Assembly (NCBI GenBank): GCA_035627275.1
Contig: DASPMC010000057.1
Span: 128,472 to 152,471, forward strand
DNA: 24,000 nt
Source: Noviherbaspirillum sp.
GTDB taxonomy: Bacteria > Pseudomonadota > Gammaproteobacteria > Burkholderiales > Burkholderiaceae_D
Reading direction: 5' to 3'
Made by a program: the position numbers and the translations under genes. The notes under the pieces are model-generated. The model was given only the letters and a program-made list of their open reading frames with translations, made no database searches and was not told the origin of the DNA. Shown here piece after piece: positions 8,517-20,915 of the stretch; the stretch's first letter is position 1; each line of letters starts with the position of its first letter.

Positions 8517-9332
8517 CTATACGATGGCCAGCCGGCCGGCGACGTAGGCCAGCTGGGCGCGATTCATGGCCTGGTACTTTCGGCGCAGCGCGCGAAGGTG
8601 ATAATCGATGTTGTGCACAGTCGTACGCAGACCTCGGGCAATTTCCTTGTCGCTCAACCCCTTCGATACACCTGCGAGCACATGCTTCTGCATATCGGAT
8701 AAATCATCGATTTCGGATCGCCGCATCAGGCCGGCCGTGCAGCCCTTGATGAACTCGTGTACGGAGAGTCCGAGGATGAGTGCCTGGCCCGCGATACTGG
8801 GAGCGATCCAATCCTTTGTCGTATTGGCCGAGTTGATGCAGATCGCGACCTGCATGGACGACAACGGAACCGTCAGGCTGAACGCGACTCCGCTATTCAT
8901 CCCGTGTTTCGCCAGGTCGTCGAGAAAGCTGCGCATGTGTGGACTAAGCATGTTTCCGGGTTGTGTACGAGCGAGGTAGCGCAGGTCCCAGATTAGTGGA
9001 ACCGGGCACGTCCGAATCGCTTCAAGGCGCGGATCCAGCGCATGGAAGCCTTGGCGGAAGTAGTCGGCGGTCCATTGTGCCGGCAAGTAGCTCTTGAGGA
9101 ACAAGGTCTTTTCTGTGCGCTCACCAGAAAGCTGCCGTACCTCATAGTGCAGGGAGTTGAAGCCCATGATCGACAGCATGCTGCGAATGTTCGTCATGCG
9201 CGCAGCGGGCGTCGACGCGGCTACGAGTTCGTTGGTGACGCGGAGGCGATTGTCGTAGGAGGCAGTGCCCTGGTCGAATGCGAGATCGTGCTCTTCAATG
9301 AACGTGACATCCTGGTCGTTGAAGTTCTGCAT
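8517..9332 (-). CDS. LuxR-family quorum-sensing-type regulator (autoinducer-binding domain + LuxR HTH), no cognate luxI in the window (solo)
   Basis: The autoinducer-binding signature W-x3-Y-x8-DP-x13-W (AQWTADYFRQGFHALDPRLEAIRTCPVPLIWD) has the same spacing as TraR W57/Y61/D70/P71/W85. The C-terminal HTH is LSDKEIARGLRTTVHNIDYHLRALRRKY. ATG at 9332. The ORF-track start at 9353 is TTG. Confidence 0.85.
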   Translation of the reverse strand: MQNFNDQDVTFIEEHDLAFDQGTASYDNRLRVTNELVAASTPAARMTNIRSMLSIMGFNSLHYEVRQLSGERTEKTLFLKSYLPAQWTADYFRQGFHALDPRLEAIRTCPVPLIWDLRYLARTQPGNMLSPHMRSFLDDLAKHGMNSGVAFSLTVPLSSMQVAICINSANTTKDWIAPSIAGQALILGLSVHEFIKGCTAGLMRRSEIDDLSDMQKHVLAGVSKGLSDKEIARGLRTTVHNIDYHLRALRRKYQAMNRAQLAYVAGRLAIV

Positions 9333-9550
9333 GGTCGTGGTCACTTTGCACAAGGGCGCATGGTCGGCGCCGGTTAGTCAAACAGGAAACAGGTTACTGC
9401 CGGCTTCGTACATCCGGTTGGATGCCTAAGGATGTGCGTGTCTTGGTAAAAAAGATAGCATCGGTAACGGGGCGGGAAATCGTCCCCGGTGACAATTCGT
9501 GAGACATTCACAGATATTGAGAATCCTCGGCAAGGCACGGAGAAGATAAT

Positions 9551-13676: not shown

Positions 13677-13851
13677 TTGTGCGGTTCCTGACGCAATCCG
13701 CTCCAACTGCCGCACGGGACGGACGGCTAGTCGAGGGCTGTAAAGTATATGTTGCACGTTCTGCAACTGCTACTAGACGTTTTCGTAGTCTTTATCATTT
13801 TGCAAGAGTGAAAATACGGAGTGTCGTACCGGTCCAGGTATTACGCCAGCC

Positions 13852-14373
13852 TTAGCGGCGACCATATTGCTCCAGGCATTTCGATAGCACTTCACGCTCA
13901 TCGGAGAGGAACAGCTTTCCTTCGAGCCGGGCGACTTCAGCGCACTTTTCCGCAAGTGCGGGATTGACGCAGCTCATGGAGCCGGCCTGCCTGTCTCCAT
14001 CGAACAGGAAAGCATGGCAGGCCGCTGCTGCCACGACCACCGTGACGGTGCCCGCACCGACGCATAGTATGCGGACAGGGTCCTGTTTGATGCTTTGCGA
14101 GAATCGCTGCCACCGCCCTTGAGTGGCGTCGTCCGGATTTTTCGCAAACAGGGATCCGGTCACCCAGGTAAACAGTAGGGCGAATACAGTGCCGGACGCG
14201 AGAACGAGAAGCGCGGCCATCATCAGCAGACGATGGCCGGTGTCGTCATATGTTATTCGCCACGCAAACATTGCAGCGATGGTGTCGATGCCTATCCAGA
14301 ACGACACCAGGATGGTTTTCAGCAGGAAGGCCGTCGTTTCATGTGGTGCGTACAGTCCGAATCCCTTGCGCAT
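13852..14373 (-). CDS. Uncharacterised 3-TM membrane protein, predicted HrpL-regulon member
   Basis: Three hydrophobic segments (FLLKTILVSFWIGIDTIAAMFAW, LLMMAALLVLASGTVFALLFTWV, ILCVGAGTVTVVVAAAACHAFLF) and a Cys-containing soluble tail of about 45 aa. I recognise no family. I chose the start at 14373 (MRKGFG) because the ORF-track start at 14454 lies inside or upstream of the hrp-box promoter at 14441-14469. Confidence 0.6.
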   Translation of the reverse strand: MRKGFGLYAPHETTAFLLKTILVSFWIGIDTIAAMFAWRITYDDTGHRLLMMAALLVLASGTVFALLFTWVTGSLFAKNPDDATQGRWQRFSQSIKQDPVRILCVGAGTVTVVVAAAACHAFLFDGDRQAGSMSCVNPALAEKCAEVARLEGKLFLSDEREVLSKCLEQYGRR

Positions 14374-14440
14374 GACACTCTCTTGGCGAAATTGCGACTC
14401 CGAGAACGCGCGCCTTGCTTGAAACAGCGCACTTCCGCCA

Positions 14441-14469
14441 TGAGTGGCATGCAATGCCGCGGCGGTTCC
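14441..14469 (-). promoter_or_regulatory. hrp box (HrpL-type ECF sigma promoter), perfect consensus
   Basis: The minus strand reads GGAACC-GCCGCGGCATTGCATG-CCACTCA. That is GGAACC-N16-CCACNNA with 11 of 11 specified positions matching, about 70 nt upstream of the ATG at 14373. Confidence 0.6.
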
Positions 14470-14504
14470 ATTGCGCCCGTTGCTTCTCTATCAACCCCGT
14501 CCGT

Positions 14505-14532
14505 GGAACTGACCGGACCCTGCCGCCACTTA
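14505..14532 (+). promoter_or_regulatory. hrp box (HrpL-type promoter) for the sctI-sctL operon
   Basis: The plus strand reads GGAACT-GACCGGACCCTGCCG-CCACTTA (N15, 10 of 11 specified positions). It is divergent from, and 36 bp away from, the minus-strand box. It lies 50 nt upstream of the ATG at 14583. Confidence 0.6.
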
Positions 14533-14582
14533 TCGACAACATCTCACGCCGCGACAACCTTGCCGGCAGATAGGAGGAAACC

Positions 14583-14795
14583 ATGCAGTCCAGGACAACA
14601 TCGACAGATAAACCGCGCATCGCTCCACGCGACCGCTATCTCTTGAGCGGAGGAGCGTTCCAGCAGGCGGTCCCCCAGGAGGGGCAGGACGTCGTTCGTG
14701 CAGCTTGTCTGCAGGCGATGGCGACCGATAGGGGCACAGGCATCGATGAATTCAATCCTTGCCTGTCTCGCCGGCGGCTACCGAGGAAGGGGTAA
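14583..14795 (+). CDS. Hypothetical 70-aa protein, first ORF after the hrp box (positional equivalent of hrpA)
   Basis: A consensus SD AGGAGG (14572-14577) sits 5 nt before the ATG. It lies directly downstream of the hrp box and upstream of sctI. The sequence MQSRTTSTDKPRIAPRD... resembles no family I recognise, and it is basic and contains 2 Cys. Confidence 0.4.
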   Translation: MQSRTTSTDKPRIAPRDRYLLSGGAFQQAVPQEGQDVVRAACLQAMATDRGTGIDEFNPCLSRRRLPRKG

Positions 14796-14867
14796 GGCGG
14801 GTCGGATTTCCTGAAAGCCCGATCCTGTATCTACCGCAGTGCAAGCAAAAACCTGAAGGGGGCCAAC

Positions 14868-15284
14868 GTGAACGAAATCACCTCAGTACCTGACCTAGCA
14901 ACAGCGTCCGCAAGCGGCATGGGCCGCACCGGCCAGCTCAGGCTGGAAATCGTGGGGGCGGAGCCGGGTGACGGCGCACAGTTCCGCGGCGCGCTCGAGC
15001 GTCACATGCAGTCCGTCCAGGGCGCGGGCGCGGTGCCCGGCGGCGGCAACAATGCTTCGCTCGGAGAGAAGATCATGGCCCGCGCCACCAACCTGGCGAG
15101 CGAAATGAAAAGTGGTGAGCAGCATGTCTCGAAGATGCTCGAGCAAGCGACCCGAAGTGCAGACCCGATGCACATGATGAAAGCGATGCTCGCGCTGAAT
15201 GATTACCAGATGCGTGTTCAGTTCGTTTCCAAAACGGCGTCGAAAGCCGCATCCTCCATCGACCAGTTGACGAAGCTGCAATAA
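14868..15284 (+). CDS. sctI: T3SS inner-rod protein SctI (HrpB/YscI/PrgJ family)
   Basis: 138 aa, GTG start with GAAGGGGG upstream. The C-terminus ALNDYQMRVQFVSKTASKAASSIDQLTKLQ aligns by eye with the PrgJ/YscI C-terminal helix (..SDYNLYVSMVSTLTRKGVGAVETLL..). It lies immediately upstream of sctJ, as hrpB does. Confidence 0.7.
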   Translation: MNEITSVPDLATASASGMGRTGQLRLEIVGAEPGDGAQFRGALERHMQSVQGAGAVPGGGNNASLGEKIMARATNLASEMKSGEQHVSKMLEQATRSADPMHMMKAMLALNDYQMRVQFVSKTASKAASSIDQLTKLQ

Positions 15285-15288
15285 GCTT

Positions 15289-16164
15289 ATGAGCGCGAAC
15301 CTTCTCGACTATCAGCATTCGCATGCCGCCTCGCTTACCGCGTCGCAGTGGCAGCGCGTGCAGACGATGCTGCTGCGGCTGTGTGTGTTCTGTCTGTTCC
15401 TCTTCCTGTGTGGTTGTTCCGAAACGACCAACCTGCAGGCAGGACTTAACGACGCCGACGCCAACGAAATCGTGTCGGTGCTGAACCGTCATGGCATCAC
15501 GGCGCAGAAGCGCACTACCAAGGAGGGCGTGACGCTCACCGTCAAGATGTCGGATATCTCACGCGCCACCGAAGTGATGCACGCTGCCGGCCTGCCAAGG
15601 CGAACCCGCACCAATCTTGGGCAGGTATTCAAGAAGGAAGGGATGATCTCCACTCCGCTCGAGGAGCGAGTGCGCTACATCCACGGGCTGTCGGAGGAGC
15701 TGGAATTCACGCTCCAACAGTTTGACAACGTGGTATCGGCGCGTGTGCACGTGGTCCTGCCGGAGCGAATTGCGCCGGGCGAACCGATCCAGCCTTCATC
15801 CGCTGCGGTATTCGTCAAGTATCGTCCGCCTTTCGACGAAGACACGGCCATTCCGCGCATCCGCAACCTGGTTGCGTCGAGCATCCCCGGGCTGTCGGGC
15901 GAAAGCGGGCATGACAAGGTATCGGTTGTGCTGGCGCCAAGCGAAGCTACCGCACCCAGGGTCGAGTGGACCCAGGTGGGGCCATTCATCGTACAGGCCG
16001 AATCGGCGGGTGGCTTGATCGCTACCCTGTTGCTGATGGCGGGCGTGGTTGCCGCGAGCCTGTTCTATGCCTTTATAGCGGGCGGCCGCCGGCAAGTGCT
16101 GGGCAACTGGGCCAGGAAACACTTCGGCAAGTCGCCCGCATTCAATGCGGGCGACGAGGGATAG
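15289..16164 (+). CDS. sctJ: T3SS inner-membrane ring lipoprotein SctJ (HrcJ/YscJ family)
   Basis: The lipobox LFLCGC is followed by LQAGLNDADANEIVSVLNRHGITAQK..GVTLTV...ATEVMHAAGLPR, then ARVHVVLPE and a C-terminal TM helix LIATLLLMAGVVAASLFYAFIAG. This is the classic YscJ/HrcJ/FliF-like architecture. Confidence 0.92.
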   Translation: MSANLLDYQHSHAASLTASQWQRVQTMLLRLCVFCLFLFLCGCSETTNLQAGLNDADANEIVSVLNRHGITAQKRTTKEGVTLTVKMSDISRATEVMHAAGLPRRTRTNLGQVFKKEGMISTPLEERVRYIHGLSEELEFTLQQFDNVVSARVHVVLPERIAPGEPIQPSSAAVFVKYRPPFDEDTAIPRIRNLVASSIPGLSGESGHDKVSVVLAPSEATAPRVEWTQVGPFIVQAESAGGLIATLLLMAGVVAASLFYAFIAGGRRQVLGNWARKHFGKSPAFNAGDEG

Positions 16165-16178
16165 CGGGGCAGTTTGCC

Positions 16179-16790
16179 ATGCTGACAGACGCATTCCTCG
16201 ATTGGTGGTTCGCGCCATGGGCATATGCGGCGCGTCCTTCAGCCTCCCTGTCCGCGCCGGATTGCCTGGGGCAGAGGGACGCCTATCGCTTGTGGTGCGA
16301 AGAAGCTCGGCTTAGACCCGACCTGCCGGAACGCTGCGATCCCGCATGGAGCTTCGCCGCCCTTTATGACGGCAGAGTACTGCTTTCCACGGCAAGGCTG
16401 TTTGCCGGACTGATGGCTGCACGTCGGCACGACCGCACGGGACTCGATGCACTTACGATCGACGATAGGAAATGGTGCGCCAGCATCTCCGCCACCCAGC
16501 CGCTGCAAAGTTTCCACACGATGCGCGTCGCATCGCCCCAGCAGGTCGAGATATGGGGACTGGTCGAGCTCGCCGTACGGCTGGAGCACGGATTTCCCGG
16601 CATGTGGTCGCGCTTGCGTTTGCTGCTTCCATCAGACATGTCGCGGGACGTGGACGGATTGTTGCGATCCGGAACCGGTGCGGGCGCCCACGTGAGCACG
16701 CCGGACCGCCGCGCGCAACGCTGCTGGCGCTTGTGCCTTGAACGTGTCGCGGATGCGGCACGGATCACGAAGGAAGGAGTGCTTCAATGA
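16179..16790 (+). CDS. HrpD-position protein, putative sorting-platform component (SctK-like)
   Basis: 203 aa starting MLTDAFLDWWFAPW. It sits between sctJ and sctL, exactly where hrpD/sctK lies in Hrp1 clusters. Its stop overlaps the sctL start (ATGA at 16787-16790). The assignment is positional. I see no diagnostic motif. Confidence 0.5.
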   Translation: MLTDAFLDWWFAPWAYAARPSASLSAPDCLGQRDAYRLWCEEARLRPDLPERCDPAWSFAALYDGRVLLSTARLFAGLMAARRHDRTGLDALTIDDRKWCASISATQPLQSFHTMRVASPQQVEIWGLVELAVRLEHGFPGMWSRLRLLLPSDMSRDVDGLLRSGTGAGAHVSTPDRRAQRCWRLCLERVADAARITKEGVLQ

Positions 16791-17425
16791 CAGGATTCTG
16801 TGTCGAGAAAATCCAGTGCGATCCGCAACTGCGCGGAGAGCATGGCGTATTGCGGGTTGCGGCGATCGCGGTGACGGCCGACGCACGCCAGGCAGCAGCC
16901 AGGATTATGCGACAGGCGCAAGATGAAGCCGATGCGCTGCTGCGGCGCGCGCATGAAGAAGCAAGCGAAGTCGTGCGGGAGGCAGAGCAGCAGACACTGG
17001 CGCGTGCGAGCGCACTATTGCAATCCCTGGAGGAAGCCAACACCAGCCTGGTGAAGCGTTCTCAAGACATCGTCATTTCGCTGGCGCAGGGCGTATTCGA
17101 TCGGCTCGTGAGTGACACCACACCGAGGGAACGTGTGGAGGCAGTCCTCAAGCGGGTGCTGCAGGAAGCGCAGCCGGGCCTGTCGCATCCCTTGCTGCGT
17201 CTGCATCCGGAGGATGTCGAACTGGCGCCGGCGGTGGAATGGGAGATCAAGCCGGACGCTTCCCTGCCGCGCGGCACATGCCGCCTCGAAGCGTCTACCG
17301 GCGAATGGGGCGCGGATTTTTGCGCAGCGGTGACCTCCCTGAAGACTGCCTTGATGCGCACGACGTCGAATACCGGCATGGACGATGGCGAATCCGACGC
17401 CTCGATTGTTCAACACAAAAACTGA
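16787..17425 (+). CDS. sctL: T3SS stator protein SctL (HrpE/YscL/FliH family)
   Basis: An N-terminal charged coiled-coil ARQAAARIMRQAQDEADALLRRAHEEASEVVREAEQQTLARA is followed by LLRLHPEDVELA and GTCRLEASTGEWGADFCAAVTSL, which is typical of the FliH/YscL C-terminal domain. Confidence 0.8.
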   Translation: MTGFCVEKIQCDPQLRGEHGVLRVAAIAVTADARQAAARIMRQAQDEADALLRRAHEEASEVVREAEQQTLARASALLQSLEEANTSLVKRSQDIVISLAQGVFDRLVSDTTPRERVEAVLKRVLQEAQPGLSHPLLRLHPEDVELAPAVEWEIKPDASLPRGTCRLEASTGEWGADFCAAVTSLKTALMRTTSNTGMDDGESDASIVQHKN

Positions 17426-18364: not shown

Positions 18365-18392
18365 CGAACCGTCCACCCACTCCTGCCACTTA
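18365..18392 (+). promoter_or_regulatory. hrp box (HrpL-type promoter) for the sctF-like/chaperone/sctC operon
   Basis: CGAACC-GTCCACCCACTCCTG-CCACTTA (N15, 10 of 11 specified positions). It shares the -10 context TGCCACTTAT with the box at 14505. It lies 50 nt upstream of the ATG at 18443. Confidence 0.5.
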
Positions 18393-18442: not shown

Positions 18443-18682
18443 ATGTCAAACAGTCTCAGCACGGCCCACACCATGTCCGCTTTGCGTCGTCTGACTAACA
18501 GGTTCGATGCCGCCGGCGATCAGATCAATGACTTCGCCCACCGCCAAGCGCAAGGGGAAAACCCCGATCCCGCCGAATTCATGAAATTGCTTGAACAGCG
18601 TTCAGTAACCGGGCAGGCCATGCAAGCCCAGTTCAAGCTTCGCGAAAAACCACTGAAGACCGTCCTCAACGAAACGCGATAA
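18443..18682 (+). CDS. sctF: T3SS needle-filament-type protein (SctF/PrgI/MxiH/YscF-like), in the hrpF position
   Basis: 79 aa, no Cys, SD AAGGAG 5 nt before the ATG. By eye, RFDAAGDQI matches PrgI KFDTGVDNL. The central loop NPDPAEF matches the needle P-(S/D)-(D/N)-P turn (PrgI KPSDPALL). The C-terminus ..VLNETR compares with PrgI ..IIQNFR. Confidence 0.65.
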   Translation: MSNSLSTAHTMSALRRLTNRFDAAGDQINDFAHRQAQGENPDPAEFMKLLEQRSVTGQAMQAQFKLREKPLKTVLNETR

Positions 18683-18687
18683 GCAGC

Positions 18688-19104
18688 ATGGATGTTTACG
18701 GCGATCTGGAACGGTGGCTCGACAGCCTGCCGCTGGACGAGGCCGTGGAGATTGACGGCGAAACAGTCTTCCTGAAGATCCATGCAGCCGGCGCGGAACT
18801 CGGTGTTTGCCTGCTCCGCACCTGCACACAGACCCAGATTCAGGATGCCTTGCGAATGGGCTTTGCAAGTGCCATCACCCATGACGCCGGGTTGGGGTTG
18901 TCTGCCGACGGCAAGGACCTGCTGCTTACCCAGTGGTTGCCACAGGCAAAACGATGGACACAGGCGGCGAAGGCACTGGAAAACCTGTTGAACCAGACCG
19001 CCACCTGGCGCGCTGCGCTCGCGCCACGGGCCGCCGAATCTGTGGGCGTCGCCGACCGACACGAGCGGCGTCTGCGCACATTGCTGGCAGGGGGGAAACG
19101 ATGA
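18688..19104 (+). CDS. Putative T3SS chaperone-like protein (hrpG position)
   Basis: 138 aa and acidic, MDVYGDLERWLDSLPLDEAVEIDGETVFLKIH... has the size and N-terminal pattern of CesT/SycE-type class I chaperones. It lies between the needle-like gene and sctC, and its stop overlaps the sctC start (ATGA at 19101-19104). The call is mostly positional. Confidence 0.45.
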   Translation: MDVYGDLERWLDSLPLDEAVEIDGETVFLKIHAAGAELGVCLLRTCTQTQIQDALRMGFASAITHDAGLGLSADGKDLLLTQWLPQAKRWTQAAKALENLLNQTATWRAALAPRAAESVGVADRHERRLRTLLAGGKR

Positions 19105-20915
19105 AATTCTTGAACATCAAGCGTTGTCTGGCCGTGATGATGATTGGCGCAGGCCTGCTCTGGTCGTCGTCCGCGCAAGCCGCCACGCCGGACAGCTGGA
19201 AGGACAGCGGGTTTTCCATCAATGCCTCGGGCATGCCTTTGCGCGATGTCATGCAAGAGTTCGGTAATGCCTTCGGCGTGCGCGTGTCCTACAGCCTTAA
19301 AGAGAGCCACGTGCTGAAAAGCCGACTGAAAGCCGATAGCGGCATCGAGTTCCTGGACAGGCTGACGCATTCGTACAAGTTCCGCTGGTTCGTTTACAAC
19401 GGCACTTTGTATATCGTACCCAGCAACGACAATGTCTCGGTGCGTCTTGAAGTCGGCGAGGATGCGGTACAGGACGCCAAGTCCGCTCTCGTTGGCCTGG
19501 GCCTGTTCGACAACCGCTTTGGCTGGGGCGAGCTGCCCGACGAAGGTGTGGTGATGGTCAGCGGCCCGCGTGAATACATCAACCTTGCGCGCGAAATCCT
19601 GCTTCCCGAAAACCGGGCGTCCGCACCCAAGGGCAAGCAACTCATGGTCTTCCGGCTCAAGTACGCCAGCGCGACCGACCGTGTGATAAACACGCGTGGC
19701 CAGAAGGAAACCATCCCCGGCATCAAGACCATCCTTGCAGGCCTGCTCAACCCTGACCGGCCTGCCGCCGGGCATGGCGGGCGCGACGATGTCGATGTAT
19801 CGAGCAGTAAGCGTTCGCTCAAGGGAAAGTACGGACGAGGAGACGCCTCAGAATCGGGCGCGCGCACGGCTGGCGGGCGGTTGCAGCAAGAGATCGAGGA
19901 CGAGGACGATCAGGACGCGAGGCGGTCGCGCCGGGCGAAGGAAACGCAGCGCTCCACGGGACCGCGGATCGACGCGGACGCCTCGCTGAACGCCATCATC
20001 ATCTACGACCATGCCAGCAAGCGCCAGATGTACCAGTCGCTGATTGCCGAGCTGGATGTCGAGCCGCAGCAGATCGAGATCGAGGCGCTCATCGTCGATA
20101 TCGATCGCAGCAGGCTGGCAGAATTGGGCGTTGAATGGGGCGCGCGTAACGGCAATACCAACCTGCGCGTCAATGCCACCTCCCGGGATTCGCAAGGCGA
20201 CGACCTGCCGATTCCAGGTGCGACGCTCCTGATCAGCAATGCGGCCCGCTTCTACGCGCGGCTCAAGGCGCTCGAAGGAACGGGCGAGGCCAATGTGCTG
20301 GCCAAGCCGACGGTCCTGACACTGGACAACGTCGCTGCCGTGCTCGACCTGAGCCAGACGTCCTACCTGCCGCTCGTCGGCGAGCGTGTTGCCGATCTTG
20401 CCAATGTCACCGCCGGTACCATGTTGCGGGTCGTGCCGCGCATCGTGAAAGAGAATACCGGCACCCGGGTACGGCTTGAAGTCGACATCGAAGACGGTTC
20501 CCTGGGCGATCCCAACCAGAAGAACACGGTAGCGACGCGTTCGACCATCAGCACCCAGGCAATCGTCGACTTGCAGCAAACCCTGATGATCGGCGGCTAC
20601 CACGCGGAGTCGAGGACGATCAACAAGCAGAAAGTGCCGGTGCTGGGCGATATGCCGCTGTTAGGCGGACTGTTCCGCAGCGAAAACGAGCAGCATAACA
20701 ATCGCGAGCGCTTGTTCCTTATCACGCCGCGTGTCCGGACAGCAGCGGGCATGCCCGCACCGGAGCGCTCGAAGCTTGGCGGCATTGCACAGGGGATCGC
20801 GGCGGCGGAGCAGGCCATGGCAGCGGCTGTGGACGGGACAGGTGCAGCACCCGCGCCGAAGCGGAAGCTGAAATGCGCCCGGCCGAAACCGGGGTTTCAG
20901 TCGGCGTTGCAGTAG
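19101..20915 (+). CDS. sctC: T3SS outer-membrane secretin SctC (HrcC/YscC/InvG family)
   Basis: Signal peptide MKFLNIKRCLAVMMIGAGLLWSSSAQA. The N-domain reads GMPLRDVMQEFGNAFGVRVSYS..FRWFVYNGTLYIVP. The secretin core reads NVLAKPTVLTLDNVAAVLDLSQTSYLPL.. and VPVLGDMPLLGGLFRSENEQHNNRERLFLITPRV. The ORF-track start at 18933 is an out-of-context extension that overlaps the upstream gene. Confidence 0.92.
   Translation: MKFLNIKRCLAVMMIGAGLLWSSSAQAATPDSWKDSGFSINASGMPLRDVMQEFGNAFGVRVSYSLKESHVLKSRLKADSGIEFLDRLTHSYKFRWFVYNGTLYIVPSNDNVSVRLEVGEDAVQDAKSALVGLGLFDNRFGWGELPDEGVVMVSGPREYINLAREILLPENRASAPKGKQLMVFRLKYASATDRVINTRGQKETIPGIKTILAGLLNPDRPAAGHGGRDDVDVSSSKRSLKGKYGRGDASESGARTAGGRLQQEIEDEDDQDARRSRRAKETQRSTGPRIDADASLNAIIIYDHASKRQMYQSLIAELDVEPQQIEIEALIVDIDRSRLAELGVEWGARNGNTNLRVNATSRDSQGDDLPIPGATLLISNAARFYARLKALEGTGEANVLAKPTVLTLDNVAAVLDLSQTSYLPLVGERVADLANVTAGTMLRVVPRIVKENTGTRVRLEVDIEDGSLGDPNQKNTVATRSTISTQAIVDLQQTLMIGGYHAESRTINKQKVPVLGDMPLLGGLFRSENEQHNNRERLFLITPRVRTAAGMPAPERSKLGGIAQGIAAAEQAMAAAVDGTGAAPAPKRKLKCARPKPGFQSALQ

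Follow-up and report, generated by a model that had tools for sequence, protein, structure and literature searches.

Control of T3SS genes by HrpL and hrp boxes is classically a gammaproteobacterial trait. Promoters of the HrpL regulon in Pseudomonas syringae, Erwinia and Dickeya conform to GGAACC-N15/16-CCACNNA, and transcription from hrp promoters begins a few bases 3' of the -10 element. Among the Oxalobacteraceae, such regulation had earlier been predicted for Herbaspirillum only. According to the available excerpts of two reports (PMC3487950, PMC3093359), Herbaspirillum carries an Hrp1-like cluster flanked on one side by hrpL, and hrp-box-like sequences precede six of its operons, that of hrpB included; these boxes, published in 2012, are sequence predictions, and the excerpts mention no transcript mapping. 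A literature search found no paper on T3SS regulation in Noviherbaspirillum.

Here, we analyzed a 24-kb stretch of DNA (hereafter, the window) from Noviherbaspirillum sp., a soil betaproteobacterium, located at 128472-152471 on contig C57 of a 5.47-Mb draft assembly (G000) comprising 122 contigs and rated 73.7% complete. Insofar as the excerpts describe them, Herbaspirillum rubrisubalbicans and H. seropedicae share with the window their affiliation with the Oxalobacteraceae, a gene order of hrpB-hrcJ-hrpD-hrpE followed by a second operon ending in hrcC, and a GGAACC-N15-CCACTCA-type motif, predicted in both, ahead of hrpB as well as of the hrcC operon. Unlike them, the window pairs its hrpB-side box with a second box belonging to a membrane-protein gene, which was not seen in the corresponding place in any of the Herbaspirillum loci examined. 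It also has a 70-aa open reading frame (ORF) between box and sctI, and its cluster is split from the hrpJ-hrcU half. While hrpL lies at the cluster end in the Herbaspirillum excerpts, none was found in the G000 assembly. The systems of P. syringae, Erwinia and Dickeya are similar in their bipartite consensus, its spacing, the T3SS operons and effector candidates downstream and a regulon comprising some dozen sites or more. They differ from the window in that its host is betaproteobacterial; the Oxalobacteraceae sigma factor is a putative counterpart of gammaproteobacterial HrpL. From these comparisons and the data below, we read the 92-bp stretch at 14441-14532 as two separate, back-to-back promoters for an HrpL-type ECF sigma factor, the plus-strand one probably serving the sctI operon and the minus-strand one the membrane-protein gene; we put the probability of this reading at roughly 80%.

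Divergent boxes within an Hrp1-type cluster

The minus-strand box at 14441-14469 (GGAACCGCCGCGGCATTGCATGCCACTCA on that strand) reads GGAACC-N16-CCACTCA, with the -35 element GGAACC at 14464-14469, a 16-nt spacer and the -10 element CCACTCA at 14441-14447. Its plus-strand counterpart at 14505-14532 (GGAACTGACCGGACCCTGCCGCCACTTA) reads GGAACT-N15-CCACTTA and consists of a -35 element GGAACT at 14505-14510, a 15-nt spacer and a -10 element CCACTTA at 14526-14532. Both match the hrp-box pattern exactly, and the two are mutual inverted repeats (TGAGTGG...GGTTCC / GGAAC...CCACTTA). Relative to GGAACC...CCACTCA, the minus box scores 11 of 11 specified positions and the plus box 10 of 11, the values that a preliminary description of this DNA had given, and both motifs are present where it had placed them. 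Its gap of 36 bp needs a small correction, as we counted 35 nt between the -35 hexamers (14470-14504, not assigned to either strand). The description had also placed the boxes in the correct orientation 50-70 nt before the start codons, which agrees with the 50 nt found from the end of the plus box to the ATG at 14583 and the 67 nt from the end of the minus box to the ATG at 14373. A search for sigma-70-like promoters in 13700-15000 found none.

Across the window, the pattern GGAACY-N15,16-CCACNNA matched at these two sites and nowhere else, compared to an expectation of 0.05 from shuffled sequence. None of 100 shuffles of the window contained two or more matches, in line with the earlier statement that such a pair is very unlikely to arise by chance.

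The first gene after the plus box is the 70-aa ORF (14583-14795, plus strand), which is preceded by an AGGAGG ribosome-binding site and belongs to no Pfam or NCBIfam family. It is followed on the same strand by sctI (hrpB-type inner rod, 14868-15284; PF17001, 7e-18), sctJ (hrcJ, 15289-16164; TIGR02544, 6e-62, exceeding the curated cut-off), a gene without family assignment at the hrpD position (16179-16790, with its start inferred from the 203-aa gene called in the related metagenome contig L105), sctL (hrpE, 16787-17425; PF06188 and TIGR02499), a 275-aa gene, a 79-aa sctF-like gene, a chaperone gene and sctC. The interval from the 70-aa ORF to sctI contained no significant hairpin (z = +1.6) and no terminator. 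A further contig, C100, carries hrpJ-like, sctV, sctD and sctN genes, genes at the sctO/P positions and sctQRSTU, with box-like sites before hrpJ and before one later gene, so the T3SS is complete but split over two contigs. Taken together, the window and C100 show the Hrp1-organized (group I) order, with hrpB-hrcJ-hrpD-hrpE and an hrpF-position gene ... hrcC plus hrpJ-hrcV-hrpQ-hrcN...hrcQRSTU, and are collinear with the cluster of the nearly closed genome G010 from the same genus. All T3SS core genes looked at are full-length ORFs, and relatives of the SctJ protein belong to the Oxalobacteraceae genera Noviherbaspirillum, Herbaspirillum, Massilia and Duganella. G000 also contains a second, unrelated T3SS on C120 (20987-37782) with SctV, SctN and SctJ (41% identity). 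An RpoS/RpoD-like sigma gene directly adjoins sctV of that system, and a paralogous sigma gene is located at C28:16047-16697.

A third, variant box, CGAACC-N15-CCACTTA, is located inside the cluster at 18365-18392 on the plus strand and ends 50 nt before the sctF-like gene (18443-18682, plus strand), after which follow the chaperone gene and sctC (19101-20915, plus strand). The stretch at 14441-14532 is, therefore, not the sole hrp promoter region of these genes. Of 15 relatives examined, 12 had a CGAAC-type or TGAAC-type box at this sctF-side position, among them Massilia and Duganella, in which no canonical GGAAC boxes occur near the variant one. In P. syringae, any change in GGAAC was reported to abolish activity (PMC5263251), whereas here a CGAAC -35 element is kept across genera at the sctF-side promoter.

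Conservation of the pair and of its flanking genes

Homologues of the membrane protein with 54-86% identity were identified on five metagenome contigs (L105-L109), and in all five the gene diverges from sctI-sctJ. We aligned the intergenic region of the window with those of these relatives, giving six lineages. In the minus box, the -35 element is GGAACC in four lineages, GGAACT in one and GGAACA in one; the spacer measures 16 nt in all six; and the -10 element is CCACTCA in the window, L105 and L109, TCACTCA in two lineages and CGACTCA in one. The plus box is GGAACT-N15-CCACTTA in the window, L105, L106, L107 and L109 and GGAACC-N15-ACATTCA in L108, the most distant lineage, in which the -10 elements of both boxes are degenerate. 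The gap between the boxes amounts to 35, 45, 69, 35, 35 and 26 nt, and the inserted sequence is unrelated. Since each box is kept while the distance between them varies, the individual box is constrained as a unit and the distance is free. Fixed spacing or phasing between the promoters was not found, with 26-69 nt across the six lineages and ~17 kb in G010. As judged from these alignments, the pair is made up of two independent, conserved putative promoters with no fixed bidirectional module. Of the compact bidirectional HrpL-dependent control region proposed in the preliminary description, the two divergent HrpL-type promoters are well supported by the enrichment of the motif at HrpL spacing, the retention of both boxes in five related lineages and the published Herbaspirillum box before hrpB, but the attribute 'compact' does not hold for relatives with gaps of 26-69 bp.

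In G010, ~16 kb separates the membrane-protein gene from sctI, and the boxes, 17 kb apart, read GGAACC-N15-TTACTCA, with a degenerate -10 element, before the membrane-protein gene and GGAACT-N15-CCACCCA before sctI. The intervening DNA (C3:555200-571800 of G010) contains a box-preceded 1,293-aa ORF, a transposase-like ORF and several large ORFs whose third codon positions are very rich in GC, and it looks like mobile DNA inserted into an ancestral divergent arrangement. Within the minus-box spacer of the window (14448-14463), which is made of two short palindromes, GCCGCGGC and GCATGC, a 13-nt core, CGCGGCATTGCAT, is present in reverse complement in G010 (C3, about 555300), with the orientation of the -35 and -10 elements unchanged; comparison of the two sequences gives the appearance of a small inversion inside the promoter spacer. 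Another genome, G022, has GGAACT-N15-CCACACA 5' of its copy of the membrane-protein gene. Boxes directly before sctI also occur in more distant Herbaspirillum, Noviherbaspirillum and Janthinobacterium-like loci. The Burkholderiales metagenome-assembled genome L038, closest by SctI, has a divergent pair of its own at 9321-9468, with -35 hexamers 92 bp apart: GGAACC-N15-CCACCTA on the minus strand before a 107-aa ORF and GGAACT-N15-CGACTCA on the plus strand ~40 nt before sctI.

The target of the minus box encodes a 173-aa predicted three-helix membrane protein (13852-14373, minus strand) without Pfam or NCBIfam family. A search of 5.8 billion proteins recovered eight homologues and no more. The alignment of homologues fixes its start codon and shows that the N-terminus, MRKGFGLYAPHE, does not vary and that three cysteines of the C-terminal part are likewise invariant. 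Values of dN/dS were 0.23-0.32; structure prediction gave a low-quality model (pLDDT 61, pTM 0.29). A box-like element was present 5' of each gene of this family whose upstream DNA was readable. In view of its strict T3SS linkage and the upstream box, we consider the protein a probable non-effector member of the regulon. In the window as well as in L105 and L106, the 70-aa ORF on the other side is intact with exactly 70 codons (dN/dS 0.38-0.54); it is truncated in L109 and cleanly absent from L107 and L108. No homologue was found in the other relatives searched, and the ORF is probably a fast-evolving accessory gene.

Candidate regulon and search for the sigma factor

A genome-wide scan with the hrp-box pattern, as proposed in the preliminary description, returned 23 matches to the loose pattern GGAACY-N15,16-CCACNNA, versus a mean of 7 for composition-matched control patterns. 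The strict pattern GGAACY-N15,16-CCACTYA gave 12 matches, versus a control mean of 0.7 and maximum of 5; the reversed-pattern control gave 0. When the spacer of the strict motif was varied, six matches each were obtained at N15 and N16, one at N17 and none at N10-14 or N18-22. All strict sites but one precede a long ORF on the same strand, at a distance of 30-241 nt, and outside the pair the bipartite unit stands singly, before genes, at ten further loci of the genome. The ORFs behind strict sites mostly lack a Pfam family; several box-preceded ORFs have polar, Ser/Pro-rich N-termini, and some look effector-like. Other box-preceded products include a 1,447-aa HAD and NUDIX protein (C41:8362-12702) and an 879-aa protein with an alpha-amylase catalytic domain (C51:52271-54907). 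At C109:6213-7452, a box precedes a small ORF with a KAS III-like gene behind it, a pair that suggests a small-molecule pathway within the regulon.

Across the genus, strict-motif counts fall mostly into two groups, with 0-2 in most genomes lacking HrpL and a mean of ~12 in those containing it. One genome of the genus, G037, rated 100% complete, has ten strict matches (control 2) without an HrpL orthologue or the SctJ type studied here; this count may be an effect of GC composition.

In relatives, one ECF sigma gene is located 12-16 kb from sctJ on the same contig, and its products form a tight family corresponding to the 'HrpL' of the Herbaspirillum literature. G010 carries two tandem hrpL copies with 97% identity, each with an upstream region, between hrcC and hrpJ (C3:582358-584358). 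Orthologues were identified in 13 of 42 other genomes of the genus, often in two to three copies. Among the nine genomes with the SctJ type studied here, six contain HrpL (six of eight when G000 is left out), the three others being G000, G009 (~73% complete) and G021 (rated 100% complete, with the cluster cut at a contig end). Metagenome contigs scanned with an HrpL alignment yielded two true orthologues from unrelated samples, the remainder being generic ECF sigma factors.

In the 73.7% complete G000 assembly, neither an HrpL orthologue nor a fragment was detected by protein search or by tblastn with HrpL from five relatives and G010 up to E = 50. The best G000 match to the relatives' HrpL was the housekeeping RpoE (35-36% identity), and other matches were housekeeping ECF sigma factors. 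NCBIfam scans of all ECF-class candidates in G000 returned generic or unrelated ECF families only; the relatives' HrpL itself fits only the generic ECF model, so no model in this library identifies HrpL. Mapping the neighbors of the G010 hrpL genes onto the G000 assembly gave no useful match, and none of the other G000 ECF sigma genes lies near T3SS genes. The preliminary description had named the lack of an HrpL-type ECF sigma gene in the genome as an outcome that would refute it. Formally, this is what the assembly presents; however, given its limited completeness and the repeats at the ends of some of its T3SS and box contigs, the missing hrpL is not decisive. The right ends of C57 and C18 and the left ends of C100 and C36 carry a ~140-bp repeat that is 99-100% identical to many contig ends and probably represents the termini of multi-copy insertion elements fragmenting the assembly around T3SS regions. 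Contig-end overlaps provided no link for the T3SS contigs. C100 stops 1.6 kb 5' of hrpJ, and the smallest contig kept measures 2.2 kb. Most likely, the G000 sigma gene resides in the unassembled part of the genome. If hrpL were duplicated, its copies could have collapsed into a short contig that was then discarded, which would account for both its absence and the contig ends.

Proposed transcription, alternatives and implications

If the boxes act as we propose, an HrpL-type holoenzyme would start transcription from the plus box near 14539, generating a transcript of sctI-sctJ-hrpD-like-sctL and the 275-aa gene that begins with the 70-aa ORF in lineages having it, while the third box at 18365 would serve the sctF-like, chaperone and sctC genes. 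From the minus box, transcription would start near 14434 and express the 173-aa membrane protein that travels with the T3SS. By analogy to described hrp promoters, an HrpL-type sigma factor most likely reads both boxes, with starts a few bases 3' of each -10 element. With no hairpin before sctI in the window and with the box directly before sctI in L107 and L108, the plus promoter is expected to serve the sctI operon in all lineages.

The best model for the implications of the 35-nt gap is, by analogy, the hrpL-hrpJ region of P. syringae DC3000, in which an HrpL-dependent promoter likewise lies beside a divergent promoter and bound RNAP-HrpL interferes with its neighbor: when the hrpJ box is occupied, the divergent hrpL promoter next to it is repressed (PMC5263251). 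There, the neighbor is the sigma-54 promoter of hrpL itself, resulting in negative autoregulation, whereas in the window both promoters have hrp boxes and neither gene encodes the sigma factor. The reported RNAP-HrpL footprint extends >130 nt upstream, and RNAP-sigmaE covers DNA up to -60 (PMC5263251). Each -35 element of the pair is located ~70-76 nt 5' of the predicted start of the opposite promoter. Because this distance lies within the reported reach of RNAP-HrpL, simultaneous occupation of both sites would probably lead to mutual hindrance of the polymerases; since relatives differ in gap length, precise geometry or phasing would not be required.

Other readings of the boxes were weighed against that of two HrpL-type promoters. 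A chance origin of either match, or of both, in GC-rich intergenic DNA is extremely improbable. A background of ~7 loose matches per genome makes single spurious sites conceivable, but the window shuffles, the excess of strict matches (12 versus 0.7) at the right spacing only and the retention of both boxes in related lineages led us to reject it. The inverted symmetry of the boxes could also point to a single large palindromic operator for a dimeric regulator. We regard this as highly improbable and likewise rejected it, since the distance between the arms ranges from 26 to 69 bp in relatives while the spacers inside the boxes stay at 16 and 15 nt, the bipartite unit stands alone at the ten other loci, and 17 kb separates the boxes in G010.

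More weight, although it is still unlikely, is due to the possibility that the boxes are real but read by a sigma factor not orthologous to HrpL of Herbaspirillum and G010, or that hrpL was lost and the regulon is silent or decaying. Consistent with this, G000, G009 and G021 have this T3SS and raised box counts, yet no HrpL orthologue was found in any of them, and G037 has its boxes with neither HrpL nor this SctJ type. Against it, G000 and G009 are only ~73% complete, some of the T3SS and box contigs of G000 end in the shared repeat, and hrpL is often duplicated in the genus, a feature that breaks short-read assemblies. The full-length core genes and conserved boxes argue against decay, and none of the other G000 ECF sigma genes is located close to T3SS genes. 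A further, rather speculative idea is that the 173-aa protein might be a lineage-restricted accessory or feedback component of the T3SS, its level coupled to machine synthesis by competing HrpL polymerases; alternatively, the boxes in genomes without hrpL might be read by a sigma factor not orthologous to HrpL.

As this type of regulation is already predicted in Herbaspirillum, the window is a further example. It leaves current understanding unchanged and is, thus, a solid but ordinary addition, extending HrpL/hrp-box regulation of T3SSs to another Oxalobacteraceae group, the genus of Noviherbaspirillum sp. Root189. Its modest additions are a divergent pairing, conserved among relatives, with the gene of a new membrane-protein family, the conserved variant CGAAC -35 element at the sctF-side promoter and the finding that several assemblies lack hrpL. 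The data also provide a regulon map for an environmental T3SS that had not been studied, with about a dozen genes preceded by boxes, most of them orphan effector candidates, and flag one uncharacterized membrane-protein family as a conserved, probably non-effector regulon member. The close divergent pair itself would lend itself well to studying how two ECF-sigma promoters interfere with each other.
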